The notes under the pieces are model-generated. The model was not told the origin of the DNA, ran no database searches, and saw nothing but the letters and a program-made list of their open reading frames with translations. From a virus, in IMG/VR virus record IMGVR_UViG_3300046794_000311, positions 21,748-85,747 of that record: a stretch of 64,000 nucleotides of DNA; one strand, 5' to 3'. Positions 2,049-46,025 of this stretch are shown here, piece by piece. Made by a program: the position numbers and the translations under genes. The number at the start of each line of letters is the position of its first letter. The first letter of the stretch is position 1.

Positions 2049-3122
2049 TCATCGTGCCCGGCGGAGCTGCACGACGTTCTGCTGGGAGACCATGCCCGTC
2101 AGGAACGGCTTGCCCTTCATCGTCTCGTCCCGGCGCCGCTTCTCACTCGACAGCCCCAGGTACCGCTCCGTGGTCGTCATGGACGAGTGGTGCAGCAGCG
2201 CGGAGACCGTACGCAGCGCCGCGTCGTAGCCGACGTCCTCGGCGAGCTGGTCGAAGTAGGCACGGGCCACCGCCCGGCGCACCGTGTGCGTGCCCTCGTA
2301 GCGGGTCGGCAGGCCCAGCTTGGCCAGGGCGCCCTTGACGATCTTCTCCGTACGCTCCACCGGCCGGTCGGCGTGGTAGACGAACGGGGTCCGCTCATAC
2401 ACCCGGCGACCCAGCGCCTCGTCGAAGTAGTGCGTCTTGATCTGGTTGCCGGACCGGGCCGGGAAGAGGTAGTCGTCCGGCCGCAGCGGGCGCCCGAGCA
2501 GAGCCGCGTACTCCTCGAACCAGATCCGCAGCTCCCGCTCCAGGTCGGCAGTCAGTGGCATCTCGTCCTCCTCCTTGGTCTTGATCACGGTCACGAAGAC
2601 CTCGGAGGCCGCGAAGTCGACGTCGCCGACGCGCAGGTTCACCAGCTCGCTCGCGCGGCACGCGGTGTTCACGGCCGTCGCGAGGTAGGCGCGGTGCATG
2701 GCGCACTCGGACTGGTCCAGGAGCTGGAGGAGGATGCCCGGCGCGGGCTGCATGCGCTGCTTGCGCACCTCGGGCAGTGGGTCGACCAGGCACAGGTAGT
2801 CGTTGCGCGGAGCGAGCCCCCGGGCGTGGGAGTAGCCGAAGAACAGGCTCAGCCGCTTGCGGTAGTGGTTGTGCGTGCTCGGCCCCACGGCCGCCCGGAG
2901 CTGCTGGCCCTTGATGCGGGTGACGTGGATGTCCATCAGCCCGCCGTCGCCGTAGAAGAAGTCACGGACCTGCTCAGGGGTGAGGGCCGCGAAGTCGGGG
3001 TTGCCGACGTGCTCGGCGAAGCGGGGCAGCAGGTTGTCGTCGGCGCGCATCGTGTTGTCGGCCTTGGCGGCTCGCCGGTTGCCCAGGTACTCGTCGATGG
3101 CGCTGCGCAGTGCGATGGTCAC
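2049..3122 (-). CDS. Tyrosine recombinase/integrase
   Basis: Catalytic R (ACRASE), HxxR (GTHTVRR), LLHH, Y (TTERYLG); AGGAGG RBS before GTG at 3122. Confidence 0.9.
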   Translation of the reverse strand: MTIALRSAIDEYLGNRRAAKADNTMRADDNLLPRFAEHVGNPDFAALTPEQVRDFFYGDGGLMDIHVTRIKGQQLRAAVGPSTHNHYRKRLSLFFGYSHARGLAPRNDYLCLVDPLPEVRKQRMQPAPGILLQLLDQSECAMHRAYLATAVNTACRASELVNLRVGDVDFAASEVFVTVIKTKEEDEMPLTADLERELRIWFEEYAALLGRPLRPDDYLFPARSGNQIKTHYFDEALGRRVYERTPFVYHADRPVERTEKIVKGALAKLGLPTRYEGTHTVRRAVARAYFDQLAEDVGYDAALRTVSALLHHSSMTTTERYLGLSSEKRRRDETMKGKPFLTGMVSQQNVVQLRRAR

Positions 3123-3242
3123 GCTTCCTCCTGTTGCGGGGTGAGCTGCGACCCTCAGCGTAAAGACGTCAAGCCTTCTCGTCAATGCGCTGGACAACAG
3201 GTTATGTAGACGTAATCCTGAAGGCGTAGTACGGTTCCCGTC

Positions 3243-3401
3243 ATGATGACGAACACGCTCACCGGGCTTAATACCTCGGGCTCCGACGAGCCCCAGGTCA
3301 CCGTGACCCTCACCAACAACCGGATGGAAGACAGCCGCTGGAACCGGCTCCTCACCATCCTGTTCACCCCGCAGGACGAAGACACACCCGCAGCGACCTA
3401 G
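3243..3401 (+). CDS. 52-aa small protein upstream of the serine recombinase (not in ORF track)
   Basis: ATG 3243 to TAG 3401, MMTNTLTGLNTSGSDEPQ...; carries the CTTAATACC motif in frame as L-N-T like other genes. Confidence 0.5.
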   Translation: MMTNTLTGLNTSGSDEPQVTVTLTNNRMEDSRWNRLLTILFTPQDEDTPAAT

Positions 3402-3525
3402 CACAACTACCCCACACAGGCGGGCCGTTCCTCATATACTGCGCTGATCAACAAGACGGGCCTGCCCATCGCGAGTCTAGGCGCGAGGGACAGGCCCTTG
3501 ATCAGTCTGTAAAGGAGACTGAACC

Positions 3526-5619
3526 ATGGCCAGCATAGCGGCCGAGCGCGCCCGCGAACGCGCCCTGAAGGTAAATGGCACCCGCCCCGGCACCCCCGGC
3601 ACCCCCGGCACCTTCAAGTCCTGTACCGCCCTCGCACGCATCGTCAAGCGCGTCGGCGCGTACCTCCGCGTCTCCACCAAGGACCAGATCGTCGGCTACG
3701 GCCTCGACGTCCAGCTCAAGGGCATCCAGGACAACATCGACGTCAAGAACACGATGGAGGCGCGCAACGGCACCAACATCGTCTGGGAACTCTCCGACGT
3801 CTACGAGGACGCAGGCGAGTCCGGCGCCAAGCAGGACCGCCCCGAGATGATGCGCCTGGAGCGCGACGTACTCGCCAAGAAGATCGACGTCGTCGCCGTC
3901 CACAAGTTCGACCGCATCGGTCGCACCGGCCGCGCCTTCTGGCACTGGGTCTGGGCCCTCGAAGACGCCGGTACCTCGATCATGTCCGTCACCCAGGAGA
4001 TCGACACCACCACGACCCACGGCGTCACCGCACTCCAGCAGCTCGCGTCCTTCTCCGAAATGGAATGGCGCACCATCCTGGAGCGCACCCAGAACGGCCT
4101 CAACATGAAGGCCGCAGCCGGAGGCTGGACCGGCGGTCCCCCGCCCTTCGGCTACTGCATCGAGAACCAGGGCAAGCGCGACTCCAAGCTGGCTCTGCAC
4201 GCCGAGGAGTGCCGCACCCTCGACATCGCCGCCCAGATGATCGTCGAAGGCGGATACACCGTCGACCGCGCCGCGCACATGCTCAACCTCATCGGCCGCC
4301 TCACCCGCAAGGGCGTGGAGTGGACCGGATCCAACCTGCGGCACAAGTTCTTCAACACCGCCCTGGACGGTTTCGTCGTCTACCGAAACACCGACGAGGT
4401 AGTCAACAAGCGCCGCAAGCGCGCCACCAAGATGAACCCCGACGGCACCCCCAAGCACGGCCCGATGATGATCATCGACACCCCGATGGTCTTCGAGATC
4501 GACCGGCTCATGTCCATCCGCCACGCCCTCAAGCGAAACGGCTGGAACCTCACCGGCCCGTACAAGTACCACCCGCTCAGCACCCGCGTGATCGGTGAAT
4601 GCGGCGCCCACTACACCGGGGTCTGGGTAAAGGCAGAAGACCGCCGTACCTACCGATGCACCGGAAACAAATGCGGGGACTCGGTGATCGACGCCGTGGC
4701 GCTCGAAGAGGTCGTATGGGACAGCCTGAAGAACTTCCTCGGCGACAAGGAGAAGCTGCGCGAGATCGCCAAGGACTGGGTCACCACCGCGCCGGATCAC
4801 CGCAAGATGTACGAGGCGCGTATTGAAGAACTCACCCGGGAGATCTCGGGCCTGCGTGAGCTGACCACCACCACGCTGGTGAACCTCGCGAAGGCGGGCG
4901 TCGATGCGCTGGCCATCAATTCAGCAGTGGCGAAGCTGAACGAGGAGATCAACAACAAGCAGGCGATGCTGGACGACGCCGTGTCAATGCTGTCGGAGGC
5001 AGAAGAGGCCGCTACTCGGGCCGAGGATTTCCAGCGTCTGGTGGAGATCGCCAGCTTCAACCTGGAGCACATCACCGACCGGCAGAAGGCCGAAGTGATG
5101 GACCTGCTGGAGATTCAGGTGTCGCTCATGGGGCCGGTTCCGCTGGACGGCCGTTTCGGGCCGGACTCCGACATTGAGCAGTGGTTCGGGAAGCGCGGCG
5201 TTCAGCCGGTCGAGATGACCGATGCGCTGTGGGAGGAGGTCCGTCCTCGGATCAGCTTCCGGGTCACGAAGAAGAGCCACGATCTGCGGTCGCTGGTGGA
5301 GGGTCTGCTCTACAAGGCCCGCACGGGTTGCCCGTGGTCTGAGATGCCGGAGCACTTCCCGCCGAAGGAGGCGCTGAGGGCCCGCTGGAGGGCCTGGAAG
5401 GACGGGGCGTGGGAGAGCATCGTCGAGCCCCTTCTGGAGCCCGCTCCGCCGCGTAAGCCGCCTCTGCCGCCCATGAAGGTGACGGGGAACATCGACCCCC
5501 GTCTGGTCGAGTTCACGAACGGGCAGGCGACGAGCCAGGTTCCGCACTCTGGTGGACGAGCGTCCAGGGGTTCGTTCACGTACGTCATCAACCTGGAAAA
5601 ATGGCGATTGGCCGCCTGA
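3526..5619 (+). CDS. Large serine recombinase with C-terminal IS5-transposase N-terminal-like (DUF4096-type) domain
   Basis: YLRVST catalytic Ser, DRPE, KFDRIGR, GGPPPFGY, Zn ribbon (ECG...YRC...C), coiled coil; C-terminal MTDALW...LLYKARTGCPWSEMP...WRAWKDGAW. Confidence 0.9.
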   Translation: MASIAAERARERALKVNGTRPGTPGTPGTFKSCTALARIVKRVGAYLRVSTKDQIVGYGLDVQLKGIQDNIDVKNTMEARNGTNIVWELSDVYEDAGESGAKQDRPEMMRLERDVLAKKIDVVAVHKFDRIGRTGRAFWHWVWALEDAGTSIMSVTQEIDTTTTHGVTALQQLASFSEMEWRTILERTQNGLNMKAAAGGWTGGPPPFGYCIENQGKRDSKLALHAEECRTLDIAAQMIVEGGYTVDRAAHMLNLIGRLTRKGVEWTGSNLRHKFFNTALDGFVVYRNTDEVVNKRRKRATKMNPDGTPKHGPMMIIDTPMVFEIDRLMSIRHALKRNGWNLTGPYKYHPLSTRVIGECGAHYTGVWVKAEDRRTYRCTGNKCGDSVIDAVALEEVVWDSLKNFLGDKEKLREIAKDWVTTAPDHRKMYEARIEELTREISGLRELTTTTLVNLAKAGVDALAINSAVAKLNEEINNKQAMLDDAVSMLSEAEEAATRAEDFQRLVEIASFNLEHITDRQKAEVMDLLEIQVSLMGPVPLDGRFGPDSDIEQWFGKRGVQPVEMTDALWEEVRPRISFRVTKKSHDLRSLVEGLLYKARTGCPWSEMPEHFPPKEALRARWRAWKDGAWESIVEPLLEPAPPRKPPLPPMKVTGNIDPRLVEFTNGQATSQVPHSGGRASRGSFTYVINLEKWRLAA

Positions 5620-15899: not shown

Positions 15900-16319
15900 A
15901 TGAGCGGTATCGGTGGTTTCACCTACATCTTGACCAACAACGACCTGTCCGTGGCCCAGCCGGTCCCGGCCGGTGCGGAACTGGTCTCCATCTACGCGAA
16001 CCTCGGCACGGCGGGCTCTACGCAGTCCACGTTCCAGGTCAACAAGAACGGCTCGGCCGTCTCCGGCGCGGTCGCCACCGTGGCGGCCTCGGCGACCAAG
16101 GGCAACAAGGTCATCTCCAACCCGTACGTCGGCGTGAACGCGGGCAACCAGGCGGGCTGGACCGACCAGTCCGGCACCCAGTTCACCGCGAGCCAGGGCG
16201 GCGTGAACAACGTCGCTGCGCTGGCCACCTTCGCGGCCGGTGACACGGTCTCGCTGACCAACACCCTGGGCACGTCGGCCGCCAACCCGGGCGTCGTGCT
16301 GGTCTTCAAGACGCTCTGA
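15900..16319 (+). CDS. Beta-rich Gly/Ala/Thr protein, possibly virion decoration
   Basis: GAGGAG RBS, strong codon bias, followed by a terminator. Confidence 0.6.
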   Translation: MSGIGGFTYILTNNDLSVAQPVPAGAELVSIYANLGTAGSTQSTFQVNKNGSAVSGAVATVAASATKGNKVISNPYVGVNAGNQAGWTDQSGTQFTASQGGVNNVAALATFAAGDTVSLTNTLGTSAANPGVVLVFKTL

Positions 16320-16392
16320 TCCCCACGGCGAACCCCCGGGCCACTGTTCACGCGGAGGTCCGGGGGTTTGTTGTATCCATGGAAGGAAGCCC

Positions 16393-16677
16393 ATGATCTG
16401 GTACTGCGACGAATGCAACGACTGGGGCACGTCCGACACCGAGGTGGACGCGGCCGTCGACAAGCAGAACCACCTGGACGCCCACCGGGGCCGCTACGTT
16501 CCCGAACCGGCCGCCGAGGATGAGCCGGACGAGGTCACTGTCTGGACGACGAAGCACGTGGCGTGGGGTATCACGGTTGTGCTCGGGCTACTGTCCGCAC
16601 GCTTCCCGGCCCTGCTGGGGGTATCAGCGGTTTCTGCGCTGCTCACGTTCGTGGTGACAGGCATCTCAGACGACTGA
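16393..16677 (+). CDS. Zn-finger plus membrane hypothetical protein
   Basis: CDEC...H...H, two C-terminal TM segments. Confidence 0.55.
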   Translation: MIWYCDECNDWGTSDTEVDAAVDKQNHLDAHRGRYVPEPAAEDEPDEVTVWTTKHVAWGITVVLGLLSARFPALLGVSAVSALLTFVVTGISDD

Positions 16678-16728
16678 GCCCCGGGTAACCACGTGGGTTC
16701 CGGGGCTGTTCAGTCGTGCAGGGAGGTG

Positions 16729-17049
16729 TTACGCGATCCGACGGACGGACACTCGGAGGGTCGCATTCGCGGAACCGCCGGTGACCTTGACGCGGAAGTA
16801 CCGCGCAGCCGGGTTGAACACCGAGTTGTTCGACAGTGAGGACATCGGGGAGAGCGGAAGATCAGCGAACCCAAGCGGGTTCACGCCGTCGACCGACTCC
16901 TCGATGCCGACAGACCCACTGCCGTAGAGGGCGAAAGCAATGCGGGCCGACAGGATGCTGCTGCTGTCCACCCACTCCCCGGTGTAGGTGCCCGCACCGT
17001 CGAGCGTGGTGTCAGCCTCTACCGGGAGGTCAGGTCGCTTGAAGGACAT
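16729..17049 (-). CDS. Hypothetical beta-sandwich protein
   Basis: 106 aa; ARYFRVKVT motif; AAAGG RBS. Confidence 0.55.
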   Translation of the reverse strand: MSFKRPDLPVEADTTLDGAGTYTGEWVDSSSILSARIAFALYGSGSVGIEESVDGVNPLGFADLPLSPMSSLSNNSVFNPAARYFRVKVTGGSANATLRVSVRRIA

Positions 17050-17154
17050 GTAGTGCCTTTCTTACGGAAACGAGAACCCGGCGTTTTGAGATGGGGCCGG
17101 GTAACCATCAGCGAGCTATTTGTTCATAGGAGCATGGTCGCTATCCGCTCCTAG

Positions 17155-17227
17155 CTCCCCCACCTGGACTCGAACCAGGAACTCGCGGATTAACAGTCCG
17201 CTGCTCTGCCAATTGAGCTATGGAGGA
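17155..17227 (-). tRNA. tRNA-Asn(GTT)
   Basis: Cloverleaf: TCCTCCA/TGGGGGA acceptor, GCGGA-CTGTTAA-TCCGC anticodon arm, TTCGA T-loop. Confidence 0.93.
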
Positions 17228-17232
17228 TTGTG

Positions 17233-17312
17233 TAGCCAAGGTGGGACTCGAACCCACACGCCTTTCGGCGCCGCTTTTGAGGCGGCTGACTGTGCCATTC
17301 GTCTACTCGGCC
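17233..17312 (-). tRNA. tRNA-Leu(CAA)
   Basis: GGCCGAG/CTTGGCT acceptor, GCCGC-CTCAAAA-GCGGC, long variable arm, GTGGG-TTCGAGT-CCCAC. Confidence 0.88.
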
Positions 17313-17400
17313 GAACGTGCTCCGCACTGTTGTATCCGGTTTAGCACGGGCACTCCAGTCCAGGGTTCTTACCGGTCCCGGACTTTCCTACTGGTGAATC

Positions 17401-18024
17401 CTACTTCACCGTGTAGCGCCCGTAGTAAACGGACCGCGTCCACGGCTTGTAGTAGTTCACGCCCTTACCGGGACGCTCCGACTCCAGCCACGTCGTGGAA
17501 TTGACGTAGATAGCCACGTGGTAAACGCTGCCGTGGGAGTCGTGAACGAAGACCAGGTCGCCCTTCTGGGGCTTCGAGACCTTCGCGCTGGAGCGGTACT
17601 GCGCGTCCGCGACGCGGGGGATGCTCTTCCCCAGCTTCTTGAACGTGTAGTAGGTCAGGCCGGAGCAGTCGAAGCCCGCCGACGGCGAGGTGCCGCCCCA
17701 GACGTACCGCGTACCGATGTACTTGGCGGCCTGGTTGACGATCTTCGTGCCCGACGAGGTCGAGCTGCTGGTCGTAGGAGGCTTCGGGGTGGACGTGGAG
17801 GCGGTCAGGTAGATCTTCTCGCCGACGTAGATCCTGTTCGGGTTGGATATGTGGTTGATGGACGCGAGGTGCTGATACGTCGTCTTGTGGGCTGATGCGA
17901 TCCCGCTCAGGGTTTGTCCGCTCTTCACGGTCACGTAACTGGCCGACGCGTCCGCGACCGAAGCCGCGATCGGGGTTATGGCCAGTGCGCCCGCAAGAGC
18001 GAGTCCAGCGATCCTCTTATTCAT
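17401..18024 (-). CDS. Secreted LysM + NlpC/P60 peptidoglycan endopeptidase
   Basis: Signal peptide; Lys[14 protein letters not shown]...NPNRIYVG; YVWGG, GFDCSG, YHVAIY. Confidence 0.92.
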
Positions 18025-18036
18025 GATGCACTCCGC

Positions 18037-18183
18037 ACGCCTGCGAAATTAGGTGACGGGCTCGGGATAAGTGCTGTTCCCTACCACAAATGGTTCTGCG
18101 GATTCGCCCCAGTACTGCGTTTCGGTCTCCCGCCCCTGTTCAGGGTTGATTGCAGTTTTTGTCCAGGAACAGGGCTCGGCGTC
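18037..18183 (-). ncRNA. c-di-AMP (ydaO/yuaA-type) riboswitch
   Basis: Minus strand: GACGCCGAGCCCTG...GGGAGACC...TGGGGCGAATC...GTAGGG...CCCGAGCCCGTCACCTAATTTCGCAGGCGT matches the ydaO consensus blocks in order; directly 5' of a cell-wall hydrolase. Confidence 0.8.
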
Positions 18184-18192
18184 TGGACAAAG

Positions 18193-18265
18193 TGGCCCCC
18201 CTTGGAATCGCACCAAGATCTCCCGCTTTTCAGGCGGGCGCATTAACTGCCTCTGCCAAAGGGCC
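18193..18265 (-). tRNA. tRNA-Phe(GAA), atypical T-loop TGCGATT
   Basis: GGCCCTT/GGGGGCC acceptor; CCCGC-CTGAAAA-GCGGG; CTTGG-TGCGATT-CCAAG. Confidence 0.8.
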
Positions 18266-18270
18266 TTGAG

Positions 18271-18344
18271 TCTGGACGGCAGGATTCGAACCTGCGACCC
18301 CCTGAATCCAAATCAGGCGCGCTACCGGGCTGCGCTACGTCCAG
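18271..18344 (-). tRNA. tRNA-Pro(TGG)
   Basis: CTGGACG/CGTCCAG acceptor; CCTGA-TTTGGAT-TCAGG; GCAGG-TTCGAAT-CCTGC. Confidence 0.92.
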
Positions 18345-18419
18345 AAGTTGATGGCTTCACATTACGGTATCAGGGATAGGGCTTGTCAACCCCATTGAGC
18401 AACTAGCTTGCGTTGGGAG

Positions 18420-18740
18420 AGAGTGTTCCCCGCCGGGTCTTACGCCTCGCTTGGGGTAGCGGGCCAAGGGGCTGCCCTAGCGGGCGGGGAACAGGAAGCG
18501 GCCGAGGCAGAACGCCTGCAAGGCCGGGATGAGCGCGGGCATGCTGCCGGAGGGGAGGTGGTTCCCCTGGCCCGGCCGTCGCTCGCTCATCGTGTTCATG
18601 CATCCTTTTTACAGGATCACGGTTACGGCTTTGTAATCCGAGGCCACTGCCCCGACGCCTCGCGCGAGGCGGGGGGTAGGGCACTGTCCTGGACAGCGAA
18701 AAGGGCCGGGGGACGCCGTTGTCCCTCCGACCCTTGCTGT
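18420..18740. ncRNA. Candidate structured non-coding element
   Basis: Consecutive hairpins (11-bp 18424-18434/18483-18493; 8-bp 18528-18535/18584-18591; others); no convincing ORF. Confidence 0.35.
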
Positions 18741-18752
18741 GTCAGATGAAAG

Positions 18753-19127
18753 CTACTTGTGCGCGGCCTCGAACTCCTGGATGTACGACTTGGGGATCCG
18801 CCCCGTGGAGGAGATCTCCCGGCCCTGCTCCTTCAGCCACTGGCGCACGTCGGCAGCGGTGAAGGTCTGACCACCCTTGCCCCGGATGGCCTTGAGCACC
18901 TGCGTACCCACGCGCTTCTCGGTGTTGTGCGCGATCGAGGTGAACGGGTTCAGGGACTCCACGAGAAGCTGCTGATGCTCATCGCATAGGTCCATGAAAT
19001 ACCTCGTTGTCCCGTACGTGATGGCCGTGGCCTCGTTGTCCGGCACGTCCTGGCCACAGGTCTCCATCTTGCGACCGCGCTTCACCTTGAAGTCGCAGAA
19101 CTTGTCGACGCTGACTCGCTCACCCAT
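18753..19127 (-). CDS. lsr2: Lsr2-like nucleoid-associated protein
   Basis: RYFMDLCDEH...L N-domain; ADVRQWLKEQG.EISSTGRIPK C-terminal AT-hook-like DNA-binding domain. Confidence 0.85.
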   Translation of the reverse strand: MGERVSVDKFCDFKVKRGRKMETCGQDVPDNEATAITYGTTRYFMDLCDEHQQLLVESLNPFTSIAHNTEKRVGTQVLKAIRGKGGQTFTAADVRQWLKEQGREISSTGRIPKSYIQEFEAAHK

Positions 19128-19252
19128 GTGATCCACTCCTTAAACGGCCTCGCCGTCGGCGCAGCGATCGGCACGATGACTATGTTGGTCATCGACCAGG
19201 CTGTTGTCAAGCGACTGCCGTCACACGCTCGACAAGGCCGTTCCAGGAACAC

Positions 19253-20116
19253 CTATTTAAGAAGGGTTTCAACCGGCGCCAGGACGTTGTGAACGACCTC
19301 CTGAACAGCGCCCCTGCCCTCATCGGGTACGGAAGGGGCCGTGCGCAGCGGGGTGGTCTTCGCCACTGTCCCGGACGGAGTAGGCGAGGCTGGCGCCGTG
19401 TTCTTGGGCTTCGACGTGTCCTTCTTGGGCTTCCCCGAAGGGTTCGAAAGGTGGTTTCCGATCACCTTCCGGTGCTTGCCGACGTAGGAGCCGGGCTTCT
19501 CTACCGTCGGCGAGGTGGTCACCTTCGCGTGCCTGACCGCGTCCTGATACGCGGATCTTGTCGGCCGAAAGGTGTTGTGGGTGGGGGTGGGGGTTGCCGT
19601 CGGCACGGGCAGGTCGTCGCTGGCTATGTCCGGCTGGTCCATCGTGGGCTTGTGGCGGTGGTCCCACTGGTCCAAGGCAGCTTCAGTGGTCATACCAACG
19701 ACAAAGGGGGCTAGGGACGCGACCAGCGTGAGCATGGTGCGCCGGTACAGGGGCTTGGGCCTACGGGGCCTCTTCGCCCGGCGCGAACGCGGCTTCGGGG
19801 CGGGGTCAGGCTGCTTCACCAGCGCGGGATCATCCTCGCGCAACCAGTAGACGAACTCCTGCTGCTCCGGATCCCATCCGAAGTTCAGCACGCCCTCATC
19901 GACCAGGGCCATCAGTTCGGTGTCGACCTCGTCGGGCTCCTGGAGGCCGTAGAAGTCGGGGATGGCGTGCTCATGCGGCACGTCTTCCTTGTGACGTACG
20001 TGCGGCTCGCTCGCCGCTTCTGGGGGCATGGGAGGCTCCCCCGCAAATCTGTGACGCAGCTCTCGGACGTCCTGCTCCCCGGTGTCGTCACGTCCGTCGC
20101 GCCTGATTGTGTTCAT
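19253..20116 (-). CDS. Membrane-anchored Pro/Thr-rich hypothetical protein
   Basis: Central TM segment, low-complexity C-terminus; start uncertain. Confidence 0.55.
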   Translation of the reverse strand: MNTIRRDGRDDTGEQDVRELRHRFAGEPPMPPEAASEPHVRHKEDVPHEHAIPDFYGLQEPDEVDTELMALVDEGVLNFGWDPEQQEFVYWLREDDPALVKQPDPAPKPRSRRAKRPRRPKPLYRRTMLTLVASLAPFVVGMTTEAALDQWDHRHKPTMDQPDIASDDLPVPTATPTPTHNTFRPTRSAYQDAVRHAKVTTSPTVEKPGSYVGKHRKVIGNHLSNPSGKPKKDTSKPKNTAPASPTPSGTVAKTTPLRTAPSVPDEGRGAVQEVVHNVLAPVETLLK

Positions 20117-20605: not shown

Positions 20606-21529
20606 TCAGAAGTTTCCGGGCGCCACCTGAAGGACTCGCAAGCCGAGATTGCGCCACATGTCGACCACCTGGTTGCGGTCGTCGAGGACCAGCCAGACGT
20701 TGTACCGGCCCAGGATCTCCTGCCGGTAGATCTCCTCCTTCACGATCGAGTCCTTGCGCATGTCGTACTCGGATCGCATCAGCAGCGGCGACAGGGAGGT
20801 CCAGTCCCCCACGTGCTGCACCAGCCAGGCCCGGGTCTTCTTGTAGGCCCTCGCGTCGCGGCCGGAGACGAAGATGATCTCGGCGCCAGCGTCCCGCAGC
20901 GTGTTCACCAGGTCGACGACGTCCTGGTGTGCCTCGTCCTCGTCCACGCGGTCCCAGTCGAAGGGACTGCGGTCGGCCATCTTGGCCAGCGTTCCGTCCA
21001 GGTCCACCAGAACGGCGTGAGGGCGGCCCTGGATGTACTCCGGCGGGTCGGCGGGCTTCGGGGCCAGGTACTTCTCGTACATGTCCCTGATGACCTTCTC
21101 GCCGACGCTCTTCTCCCGCTTCAGGTCGCGGCGGACGCAGGTATTAAGCGGGACGTCGGTGAAGTCCTTGACGAAGAACCGGGCACCTTCCTCCTCCGCG
21201 ATCTTCGCCAGCCGCTCCTCGTGGAACGGGTTGAGGTTGGTGTCGGCGACGATCACGGAGACGCCCTGGAGCAGGAACGTCTTCACCAGCGCGTCGCGGG
21301 CCTTGACGACCTGGCGCTCGTGCTTGCCGTGGAAGCGGTCGGCGTGCAGCATCGCCCGCAGGTCGTCCTTGCACACGACGACGGCGCCGCCCGGGACAGC
21401 CTTGAGCACCTGCTCCCGGGCCCACGTCGTCTTGCCCGAGCCCGGCAGGCCCTTGGTCATGGTCAGCGTCGTCACGGGCTTCTCCTTGGTCTTCTTCGGT
21501 CCGCAGCACTGGCACTTCAGCAGGCTCAT
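20606..21529 (-). CDS. Polynucleotide kinase/3'-phosphatase (T4 PseT-like)
   Basis: P-loop GLPGSGKTT, DDLR, DTNL; HAD DLDGT, VSGR, LDDR. Confidence 0.92.
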   Translation of the reverse strand: MSLLKCQCCGPKKTKEKPVTTLTMTKGLPGSGKTTWAREQVLKAVPGGAVVVCKDDLRAMLHADRFHGKHERQVVKARDALVKTFLLQGVSVIVADTNLNPFHEERLAKIAEEEGARFFVKDFTDVPLNTCVRRDLKREKSVGEKVIRDMYEKYLAPKPADPPEYIQGRPHAVLVDLDGTLAKMADRSPFDWDRVDEDEAHQDVVDLVNTLRDAGAEIIFVSGRDARAYKKTRAWLVQHVGDWTSLSPLLMRSEYDMRKDSIVKEEIYRQEILGRYNVWLVLDDRNQVVDMWRNLGLRVLQVAPGNF

Positions 21530-21825
21530 CGACAGCACCCGTCGCAGCCGTGCAGGCCCTCGTAGGGGTGGTAGTCCACGCCCTGCATCAGCCGCTTGTA
21601 GTCGAGGTCGTCCGGGTCGGGGTGACCGACACCGTGGGGGCACATCCGCTCCATCAGCGCGCGGTCCATACGGAAGTGCTGGGGCCAGTCGGCCATGTGG
21701 TGATCGGAGGGGTTGTGTACGCAGCAGTGGCGGCCGATGCAGTCCTTGCGGGGGTGGGCGAGGAGTCGTTCCCCGCCCACCAGTTCCGCCGCCTCGAACC
21801 AGCCGCCGAGGTCGTCGGGCTCCAT
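21526..21825 (-). CDS. Cys/His-rich hypothetical protein
   Basis: HCCVHNPSDHHM...CPHGVGHPDPD...HGCDGCC. Confidence 0.65.
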   Translation of the reverse strand: MEPDDLGGWFEAAELVGGERLLAHPRKDCIGRHCCVHNPSDHHMADWPQHFRMDRALMERMCPHGVGHPDPDDLDYKRLMQGVDYHPYEGLHGCDGCCR

Positions 21826-44486: not shown

Positions 44487-46025
44487 CTAACCTTCCTGGT
44501 TGTAGAAAGTTGGTACATCGACGATTTCCGCGTCGATGAATCCGCTGCCGGACTCGATCATCCGGTCAGCCGGGATGGGGTGGTCGAGGGCAGTCATCTG
44601 CTCCCCGGCGTCCTTTCCGAACAGGCGACTGATCATACCGGCCTGGGCGCCATTCCCCTTAGCCTCCAGTTTCACGGAGAAGGAATCCTGCTCCAGTTCG
44701 GTCTTCACCTTCACCAGTTTCTGGAGCCGGTCGATCTCGCCGGAGAGGTTCGGATCCGCGTAACCGCCGGTCATGTCCTCCACCATCTTCATGAAGAGGA
44801 CCCGCTGGGCCTGCATCTCGATGAGGGAATTCTGGAGCGAAGCCATCTGCTGCTTGCTCTTCACTTCGACCGGGATGTCGTATGCGCAGTTGGCATCCTT
44901 GTCGAAGGCCGGGCACTTCTGGGCCAGGAAGCACGTCGAGCACACCCGCATGGACTGCGAGCGGACGGTCACCAGCGGAACGTCTCGCTCCTTGTTAACG
45001 CCGTCGTCGGGGTCGGTGTAGACCTCCTTCTCCTGCACCACACCGATGACCGGCAAGTTGGTACGCGGGCGGTCCCTGCGAGGGGCGGGAGTTGTTACGC
45101 CGTTGAGCATTTCTCCGGTGGTCGTATCAACTGTGCCCCCCTGCATTTGAGAGAAAGTCGAAAGTACCCCTGAAGGGGAAGTAGTAACTGGATCGGCCTC
45201 GGGCGCGCGGTGCTGCTCGATGGAGGCTGCGAGTTGCTGCCACGACCAGATGGTGAACCGCAGCACCTCGTTGTTGTCGCCGTCCTCGATCTTGTCCGGA
45301 TCGAAGCCCGCCTCCTGGAAAAGGGTGCGGTGCCGCTTTCGCGCCTGGTCCTTGTATTTCTTCGGGTACCGCTTCAATTCCCGGCCGGTCCAGACGATGG
45401 TGTCACCGTACTGGGAGGGGGAAATCCAGGAGGTGGACGCGACGGAATCCCAGTTCACGGCCGCCATTTCAGCAGGCTTCGTCATTGCGACGCCGTGCAG
45501 CAGGGTTCCGTATTTCCGGGTGATCTCGTTGAGGATCGGAGCGAGATTCCGTCCGTCCAAATCCGTTTGCGGAACTCCGACGCGCTTATAGCGCTGGGCG
45601 AGGCGGTCGAGTTCTTCGACGCCCCATTCCGAATGCCAGATGGGAAGGAACTTGTCCTCCGGCAGGTCCTCCCAGAAATCCTCGCGCCGGGCCTCTATCC
45701 ATTCCCGTCCGAGAACGACAGCGTCGAACTCGGACACCATATTAAGCGAGTCGATGTTCTGCTGGACGAAGGCTTCGTAGTGCGCGGCGATTTCCTTGAG
45801 TTCGCCGATCGAGTACTTGTCGTCCTCGGCCTTGTTCACGGTGTAGGCGCCGGAGTCCAGGAAGACCTTCTGGCCCTCCAGGTAGTGGTCAGCGATGAGC
45901 CACGGACGGGAGAACTTGGTCCTCCTCCTGAGCCCCATGTAGGACAGGGAGACGTTCTCGACGCCTTCCTCGGCCAGCATCTTGCGCCAGCCGGGAATCT
46001 CTGAACCGCCGAAGTACAGTTCCAC
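44487..46025 (-). CDS. TGT/DpdA-like TIM-barrel protein fused to a C-terminal Cys4 and helical domain
   Basis: VFLDSGAYT, LPIWH, LHGVAMT, DSVASTSW; CSTC...C...C. Confidence 0.65.
   Translation of the reverse strand: MELYFGGSEIPGWRKMLAEEGVENVSLSYMGLRRRTKFSRPWLIADHYLEGQKVFLDSGAYTVNKAEDDKYSIGELKEIAAHYEAFVQQNIDSLNMVSEFDAVVLGREWIEARREDFWEDLPEDKFLPIWHSEWGVEELDRLAQRYKRVGVPQTDLDGRNLAPILNEITRKYGTLLHGVAMTKPAEMAAVNWDSVASTSWISPSQYGDTIVWTGRELKRYPKKYKDQARKRHRTLFQEAGFDPDKIEDGDNNEVLRFTIWSWQQLAASIEQHRAPEADPVTTSPSGVLSTFSQMQGGTVDTTTGEMLNGVTTPAPRRDRPRTNLPVIGVVQEKEVYTDPDDGVNKERDVPLVTVRSQSMRVCSTCFLAQKCPAFDKDANCAYDIPVEVKSKQQMASLQNSLIEMQAQRVLFMKMVEDMTGGYADPNLSGEIDRLQKLVKVKTELEQDSFSVKLEAKGNGAQAGMISRLFGKDAGEQMTALDHPIPADRMIESGSGFIDAEIVDVPTFYNQEG

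Follow-up and report, generated by a model that had tools for sequence, protein, structure and literature searches.

What is a host-type riboswitch doing among the tRNA genes of a phage? The question is raised by a 64,000-nucleotide stretch of virus DNA, here called the window, which comprises bases 21748-85747 of the 85,747-base linear IMG/VR virus record IMGVR_UViG_3300046794_000311. An original prediction had placed a ydaO-type aptamer, the class that binds two molecules of cyclic di-AMP (c-di-AMP), on its minus strand between a tRNA-Phe gene and a gene for a LysM-NlpC/P60 wall hydrolase. From the analyses below we consider it probable that a temperate Streptomyces phage here carries a c-di-AMP-repressed, translationally controlled gene for a secreted endopeptidase, whose mRNA is excised from a tRNA precursor.

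A c-di-AMP-class riboswitch in a tRNA cluster

A cmscan run with Rfam 15 on the whole window returned five gathering-level matches, namely the four tRNAs (49-69 bits) and one RF00379 element (c-di-AMP, ydaO/yuaA) at 18024-18164 on the minus strand. The latter scored 58.3 bits (E 6.3e-11), well over the gathering score of 38, matched model positions 1-134 of 134, and was the only RF00379 match (n=1) in the entire 85,747-base record. Together, ARAGORN, cmscan and Pfam recovered on the minus strand every element that the original prediction had named, in the order tRNA-Pro, tRNA-Phe, riboswitch, 207-aa LysM plus NlpC/P60 gene, tRNA-Leu and tRNA-Asn (Table 1). The covariance-model score bears out the predicted ydaO-type aptamer and, with the helix covariation described below, assigns the element at the sequence level to the c-di-AMP riboswitch class.

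The same arrangement was found in related phages. All 18 viral loci with relatives of the hydrolase (55-100% identity) carry an RF00379 match that ends at the start codon (18/18, 54.8-71.9 bits), and in each of the 18 one or more tRNAs lie upstream and one or more downstream. Three further viral loci, one metagenome contig (L046) and one Streptomyces prophage (59.8 bits) share this order, and one further lineage member scored 49.2 bits. The arrangement is therefore not a chance match, because it recurs across the 18 related loci, the three further viral loci, the contig and the prophage.

We also looked for the cassette more widely. The cultured Streptomyces phages whose NlpC/P60 genes are nearest (BRock, pSt2308, Wakanda, Satis and Zuko) gave no RF00379 match (0/5), neither in their whole records nor in the loci at E up to 0.1, and blastn of the riboswitch against deposited phages gave only chance matches of 22-29 nt. 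A core-pattern scan of IMG/VR returned 16 stretches: 14 belonged to this lineage, one (L074) was a host-type leader at a contig edge and one (L073) had no RF00379 match; the pattern was narrow, and other phage lineages may carry the class. A metagenome scan added one lineage member, L046, along with 8 other RF00379 loci that have no flanking tRNAs and look cellular, and 9 loci without RF00379. Since the cassette is kept in the related loci, is missing from the five cultured phages and accounts for 14 of the 16 scan stretches, we regard it as a trait of one phage lineage. It was present in 1 of the 401 Streptomyces species genomes searched (in the genomes listed, scoring was limited to two candidates each), and proteins 70-82% identical to the hydrolase occur in several other Streptomyces isolates at NCBI.

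Covariation redraws the aptamer

Covariation was counted in an alignment (A2) of 14 distinct lineage sequences, with 500 shuffles as the control. The P1 placement given by Rfam, with its short local P2, was ruled out, as that P1 is only 66% paired and shows no covariation. The refined helix model has 99.6% of its 568 cells paired and contains four pairs in which both partners have changed; its covariation score was reached by 0 of the 500 shuffles. One pair each in P1 and P2 is altered on both sides: the pair that closes P1 occurs as C-G (9 sequences), U-A (3) or U-G (2), and the sixth pair of P2 as U-A in 11 sequences, the other three having A-U, C-G and U-G. Changes in P3 and the other helices are one-sided (wobble), and independent covariation events are few in number.

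The covariation puts the true 5' strands of P1 and P2 in what had appeared to be leader, so that the aptamer spans 18181-18038 and starts 10 nt past the CCA of tRNA-Phe. Conservation of the 37 nt from tRNA-Phe to the first position paired in the Rfam model equals that of the aptamer. The limits first predicted for the aptamer (18037-18183) fit the covariation-supported P1 (18181-18178 with 18041-18038) better than they fit the Rfam placement, and the predicted distances of about 10 nt after tRNA-Phe and about 12 nt before the ATG agree with the 10 nt found between the CCA end (18192) and P1 and the 13 nt between P1 and the ATG at 18024. Several host leaders can likewise be read, by sequence, as having a long P2 with a large apical insert. 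A search of the window for the leader hairpin as a repeated motif gave one match only, the hairpin itself.

A predicted loop-tail pseudoknot overlaps the Shine-Dalgarno sequence

The loop of the last hairpin is complementary to the 3' tail of the element. The Shine-Dalgarno (SD) sequence GGAG begins 3 nt past P1, and its last three bases fall within the 3' strand of the predicted pseudoknot (Table 1). The six pairs have no mismatch in the 14 sequences: five form in 14/14 sequences and the sixth in 13/14 with one gap, and lineage member L072 keeps 5 of the 6. A pseudoknot between the last-hairpin loop and the 3' tail is a class-defining feature, and the crystallised ydaO RNA, whose pseudoknot is called stable, has by sequence reading an equal loop-tail complementarity (PMC5393176). 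The host leaders have, again by sequence reading, the complementarity in other letters (CUCC/GGAG; CUUCG/CGAAG), and the letters of the Rfam consensus differ too.

A simple scan of 16500-19400 found no terminator-like site. In Corynebacterium glutamicum the ydaO-type riboswitch of nlpC represses at the translational level, and a pseudoknot onto the GGAG of its ribosome-binding site has been proposed (PMC9960051). Given the SD-overlapping pseudoknot, the lack of a terminator in the scan and the nlpC precedent, a translational OFF switch that acts by ligand-stabilised sequestration of the SD is by analogy the most likely platform. High c-di-AMP in the host would let the aptamer fold (P1-P3 and the 3' half), the loop-tail pseudoknot would then cover the SD, and translation of the hydrolase would be off; at low c-di-AMP the hydrolase would be made. 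With control at translation and no terminator, the downstream tRNAs should be made either way.

One precursor may carry the tRNAs and the mRNA

The hydrolase gene would depend on a promoter ahead of the tRNAs. No promoter fits between tRNA-Phe and the aptamer, because only 10 nt separate them. A promoter-like element precedes tRNA-Pro (Table 1), in which the TTGACA box is invariant in 15/15 aligned loci and a TAnnGT is kept. One precursor probably runs from this element through tRNA-Pro, tRNA-Phe, the riboswitch, the hydrolase gene, tRNA-Leu and tRNA-Asn, and maturation of the tRNA 3' and 5' ends would then produce the ends of the mRNA.

Assembled contigs from four RNA libraries of two studies (two soil metatranscriptomes and two root libraries) were compared with the locus. 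Soil metatranscriptome contigs with 0-2 differences cover 17325-17614, 17678-18032 and 17906-18167. Root-library contigs of relatives (90-97% alike) cover 17864-18220 and 17864-18323 and lead from the open reading frame (ORF) through the riboswitch into tRNA-Phe and tRNA-Pro. Region 16134-17071 has no contig in any of the four RNA runs, and uncovered parts prove nothing. The contigs agree with a single precursor and with natural expression of the locus. Loose-ended pieces of tRNA size in the RNA runs were set aside as coming from other organisms.

Two further features lie just upstream. A conserved non-coding stretch at about 18400-18530 on the minus strand, between an Lsr2-like gene and the putative tRNA promoter, is covered by RNA-library contigs of relatives. 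It can form a 10-bp long-range stem, GUUCCCCGCC with GGCGGGGAAC, which is kept in every aligned row that reaches the 5' strand; the stem shows no covariation and the stretch has no gathering-level Rfam match. The neighbouring gene (18753-19136, minus strand), just upstream of the tRNA-riboswitch cluster, encodes a protein of 127 aa in which an Lsr2 DNA-binding domain scores 32.1 bits (cut-off 26.9), by its sequence a phage-encoded xenogeneic-silencer-like protein.

The record belongs to a temperate Streptomyces phage

The record, 86% complete by CheckV, is phage DNA, as first supposed, both by its place in IMG/VR and by its phage-type genes. PHROG families were matched by 8 of 10 large ORFs: a polynucleotide kinase, a ribonucleotide reductase, two exonucleases, a queuine tRNA-ribosyltransferase-like protein, the hydrolase (tail and lysis families), one family of unknown function and one weak head-protein match; the remaining two match nothing. 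No close cultured relative was found among the phage records searched, a megablast of 24 kb giving only a 168-bp match, and the best protein identities to cultured phages were at most 59% (ribonucleotide reductase) and at most 45% (polynucleotide kinase).

The one hit of the hydrolase in genome contigs was in Streptomyces sp. NPDC002088 (NZ_JBEOXO010000018.1). Positions 1895-25002 and 27407-85679 of the record are collinear by blastn (66-87%) with positions 102777-78477 and 182980-123622 of that contig, as in a circular permutation, and the break of the permutation falls at the genes for a tyrosine integrase and a large serine recombinase. The collinear insert takes up about 105 kb of the 203-kb Streptomyces contig and has a GC content of 0.63-0.67, against 0.69-0.73 on both sides. 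The phage is temperate, as seen from its integrase genes and the related integrated copy in a host replicon, and Streptomyces is taken as the host because a Streptomyces genome holds this integrated relative. We take the record to derive from a temperate phage of Streptomyces, uncultured and about 105 kb in size.

The 697-aa serine recombinase has a C-terminal DUF4096 (IS4/5 transposase-like) domain; its gene follows that of the tyrosine integrase and precedes the next block shared with the prophage. The piece of about 2.4 kb that carries it has no blastn match at the corresponding prophage position, and could be either a mobile element that inserted there or an additional integration system. 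A polynucleotide kinase/phosphatase (20606-21643, minus strand; phrog_505, E 4.5e-95), close to the tRNA cluster, and a queuine tRNA-ribosyltransferase-like protein (44487-46025, minus strand; phrog_887, E 1.5e-79) may serve tRNA repair and 7-deazaguanine modification.

Observations that weigh against the proposed control

Several results speak against a c-di-AMP-repressed gene processed from a tRNA precursor of a temperate phage. At the promoter, a sigma-70 consensus scan of 16500-19400 gave no site, the conserved TTGACA box included; as this simple scan is silent, the putative promoter is called from its conservation. RNA-library contigs reveal neither ends nor strands nor single molecules, and carried-over DNA may be among them. 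For the prophage, att repeats of at least 15 nt were looked for at its borders and none was found, nor is there a flanking tRNA there.

The remaining points concern the riboswitch. Two positions that stand in capitals in the consensus of the Rfam alignment are altered throughout the lineage (GGGGUGAAU to GGGGCGAAU and CAGCUAAC to CACCUAAU), and both deviant positions are invariant in all 14 distinct sequences. The pseudoknot pairs carry no covariation because they are invariant within the lineage. The ligand-free minimum-energy fold contains a 3' hairpin that pairs the 3' strand of P3 with part of the SD; the energy of this fold is -53.7 kcal/mol, while the nested aptamer helices, with neither ligand nor pseudoknot terms counted, come to -48.4, and its hairpin is 89% paired over the lineage, with one pair broken in 9/14 sequences. 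As this alternative hairpin also covers part of the SD, sequence alone does not fix the sign of regulation. Lastly, the rpfA riboswitch of Streptomyces coelicolor reportedly lowers transcript levels, not translation (as cited in PMC9960051).

A predicted secreted endopeptidase, in the lysogen or in lysis

The 207-aa protein has LysM (50.4 bits, cut-off 20.9) and NLPC_P60 (82.9 bits, cut-off 23) domains and is by these matches a predicted peptidoglycan endopeptidase (NlpC/P60, PF00877; MEROPS C40). Its closest solved structure is Bacillus subtilis LytE (8i2e_B, E 7.2e-24); the catalytic Cys (in FDCSG) and His (in HVAIY) both align, and C120, H169 and E181 are invariant in 13 relatives. The N-terminus, with a basic start, a hydrophobic run and an Ala-X-Ala-like site, looks by eye like a Sec signal peptide.

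The original prediction had the phage time wall remodelling. Since the phage is temperate, a lysogenic-conversion gene that is expressed in the lysogen is no less likely than such a role in lytic growth. Under the lytic alternative the riboswitch would be the same, and the secreted endopeptidase would be an accessory factor for lysis or spread, delayed or permitted by the c-di-AMP of the infected hypha. The gene does lie on the same strand and arm as the polynucleotide kinase, exonuclease and ribonucleotide reductase genes. Furthermore, Amidase_2 and M23 domains were searched for in the 86%-complete record and none was found, so the main endolysin is not located and a secreted endopeptidase could contribute to lysis. 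The lysis cassette may, however, lie in the missing 14% of the genome, and the gene itself is distant from the structural genes and encodes the Sec-type signal peptide recognised by eye. A second NlpC/P60 domain (93.2 bits) was found outside the window, at G000:C1:7448-7732(-), in a 1022-aa open frame of tail type that is probably a tail-associated lysin. These points, with the temperate lifestyle, leave the lytic role possible but rather unlikely.

An extra helix at the 5' end

A further complementarity, here called helix A, links the nucleotides just past tRNA-Phe to the apical part of P2 (Table 1). Its core pairs form in 100% of the 14 distinct sequences, and the extended 9-bp form is 98.4% paired. 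Variation in it consists of two compensatory pairs, both from locus L046, where the letters differ and the pairing is kept, and one wobble in L025. Helix A crosses both P1 and P2, yet has no nucleotide in common with either, and it is not in the RF00379 consensus line printed by cmscan. Judged by complementarity, the phage lineage does have helix A, with thin covariation. L046 has, in addition, about 110 nt between tRNA-Phe and the riboswitch leader (L046:928-1040) that resemble a long-arm tRNA and have no gathering-level Rfam call.

Host leaders show the same topology, with a 5' flank complementary to the segment directly after the 5' strand of P2. In the leader of a small host NlpC/P60 gene (27 distinct orthologues) a 10-bp version of helix A is 97.4% paired; one of its pairs shows compensatory change, four vary by wobble only and 7 cells are unpaired, and 47 of 500 shuffles reach 97.4%. 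In another host leader (30 orthologues) 7 of 8 helix A pairs are invariant or nearly so (at least 29/30 paired), and the central pair forms in 10/30. Covariation gives helix A of the host leaders weak support in one set of orthologues and no clear verdict in the other. The complement in these Streptomyces leaders with a long P2 (L113-L142, L082-L111) is GC-rich and 8-10 nt long; it links the P1 5' flank with the nucleotides past the P2 5' strand and is missing from the RF00379 consensus line printed by cmscan. Helix A may plausibly be a general feature.

Helix A may be a second pseudoknot that mirrors the known one, a kinetic intermediate, an alternative fold or a protective 5' hairpin of the processed mRNA. 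A more elaborate model would have a doubly pseudoknotted aptamer, with helix A common to the long-P2 riboswitches of Streptomyces, in which 3' maturation of the tRNA frees and shapes the sensor and a temperate phage puts a lysogenic-conversion hydrolase under host c-di-AMP; we regard this full combination as unlikely.

Table 1. Positions of the features discussed in the text (window numbering; strand as given).
Feature	Position	Strand	Basis or remark
Promoter-like element: TTGACA 18389-18384, 19-nt spacer, TAATGT 18364-18359	18359-18389	-	Putative; about 15 nt before tRNA-Pro; conservation
tRNA-Pro(tgg)	18270-18344	-	ARAGORN; Rfam tRNA, 69 bits
tRNA-Phe(gaa) with encoded CCA	18192-18265	-	ARAGORN; Rfam tRNA, 54.7 bits; CCA end from sequence
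Helix A, 5' strand: GUCCAG 18188-18183, extendable by UUU 18191-18189	18183-18191	-	Begins 1-4 nt past tRNA-Phe
Helix A, 3' strand: CUGGAC 18166-18161 plus AAA	18158-18166	-	Lies in the apical portion of P2
c-di-AMP-class aptamer, P1 to P1	18038-18181	-	RF00379, 58.3 bits, and covariation-refined helices
P1	CGCC 18181-18178 with GGCG 18041-18038	-	Refined pairing, compensatory change
P2, 8 bp	18174-18167 with 18141-18134	-	Refined pairing, compensatory change
P3	18133-18128 with 18048-18043	-	Refined pairing
Pseudoknot loop strand GCACUU, last hairpin	18069-18074	-	Complementary to the 3' tail
Shine-Dalgarno GGAG 18034-18031, overlapping pseudoknot 3' strand GAGUGC 18033-18028	18028-18034	-	6 nt before the ATG of the hydrolase gene
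LysM plus NlpC/P60 (C40) endopeptidase gene, 207 aa (predicted)	17401-18024	-	Pfam
tRNA-Leu(caa)	17232-17312	-	ARAGORN; Rfam tRNA; 88 nt past the hydrolase stop codon
tRNA-Asn(gtt)	17154-17227	-	ARAGORN; Rfam tRNA
Tyrosine integrase (Phage_integrase domain)	2049-3404	-	Domain match
Large serine recombinase, 697 aa (Resolvase, Recombinase, Zn-ribbon)	3526-5619	+	Domain match

The host signal and the origin of the aptamer

The prophage-bearing Streptomyces genome has nine RF00379 matches, made up of 8 host leaders and the prophage copy. By translation the 8 host leaders precede M23 peptidase, Rpf-like/LysM, NlpC/P60 and transglycosylase-like genes, of which only the NlpC/P60 assignment was confirmed by blastp. 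The genome contains one diadenylate-cyclase (DAC) gene, and neither DAC nor DHH domains were found in the phage record; the signal read would therefore be that of the host. In actinobacteria, c-di-AMP riboswitches stand in the 5' untranslated regions of cell-wall genes (PMC9960051). The phage element fits that association, with its P1 ending 13 nt before the ATG of a LysM-NlpC/P60 gene. The phage would add one more wall hydrolase to the c-di-AMP-controlled set of the host, in the lysogen or during infection.

The catalytic half of the hydrolase is closest to the small riboswitch-controlled NlpC/P60 protein of the host (L034 gene), with 48.6% identity across 109 aa. Likeness of the phage aptamer to the 8 host aptamers is 71-78%, as against 93% to the prophage copy, and its Rfam match is 141 nt long with a GC content of 0.56, versus 157-174 nt and 0.64-0.72 for the host aptamers. 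Capture of the aptamer together with the gene from a host, long ago, is plausible.

Such a capture could also have left a hitch-hiker, an aptamer that came along with the host hydrolase gene and still scores with RF00379 but no longer regulates. That the nearest host protein is itself riboswitch-controlled agrees with this, as do the two conserved core positions that are off consensus. The likeness values, however, do not describe a recent copy. Furthermore, the leader is as conserved as the protein in loci down to 55% protein identity, and compensatory changes preserve the pairing of P1, P2 and helix A. Conservation and compensatory changes together indicate selection on the structure, and a silent passenger is very improbable. 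Least probable of all is that the lineage-specific core changes make the aptamer sense another (cyclic) nucleotide: the two capital consensus positions did change and then became invariant in all 14 sequences, but the overall score is well above the cut-off, host leaders vary too at neighbouring core positions, the controlled gene is of a class typical of actinobacterial c-di-AMP targets (PMC9960051), and there is no positive evidence for such a shift.

Comparison with known systems and meaning for the phage

The nearest described counterpart is nlpC (cg2402) of C. glutamicum, in which an actinobacterial RF00379-class leader likewise lies directly before an NlpC/P60 gene with no canonical terminator; that gene is chromosomal and has its own transcription start (PMC9960051). 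The phage element, in contrast, is phage-borne, starts 10 nt past a tRNA, is followed by tRNAs, has an extra 5' helix and precedes the gene of an enzyme with LysM. The Streptomyces host riboswitches of the rpfA type belong to the same class and gene category, and in several of them a long P2 goes with a complementary 5' flank that resembles helix A; they are longer and GC-richer, and the reported effect of rpfA is on transcript level (St-Onge et al. 2015, as cited in PMC9960051).

tRNA-mRNA co-transcripts have a bacterial precedent. The thrU-tyrU-glyT-thrT-tufB operon of Escherichia coli gives such a co-transcript, in which the 5' end of the mRNA is made by tRNA processing. The phage mRNA differs in having tRNAs on both sides and in that its would-be processed 5' end is a riboswitch.

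The original prediction called phage riboswitches uncommon, in line with their description as rare in phages by McCown et al. (PMC5473149); the only examples named in that passage are the cyclic di-GMP (c-di-GMP)-I riboswitch of Clostridioides difficile prophages and the glutamine riboswitch of cyanophages. These too are host-type riboswitches in phage genomes, and c-di-GMP-I also senses a cyclic dinucleotide. They differ from the element described here in riboswitch class, host phylum and controlled gene, and none is described in that passage as embedded in a tRNA operon (PMC5473149). A search of open full-text papers, main text only, found no report of a c-di-AMP riboswitch in a phage. The riboswitch class itself is known; new here are the phage context, the tRNA-flanked design without a promoter of its own and the extra helix.

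The locus offers a natural compact aptamer, with its 141-nt Rfam match versus 157-174 nt in the host, and a candidate extra helix for a Streptomyces subclass. It would also offer, if the proposed processing is true, a case of a riboswitch mRNA cut from a tRNA precursor. If the switch works as proposed, a virus would read the second messenger by which its host maintains wall homeostasis through RNA alone, and would use it to gate a secreted wall hydrolase.

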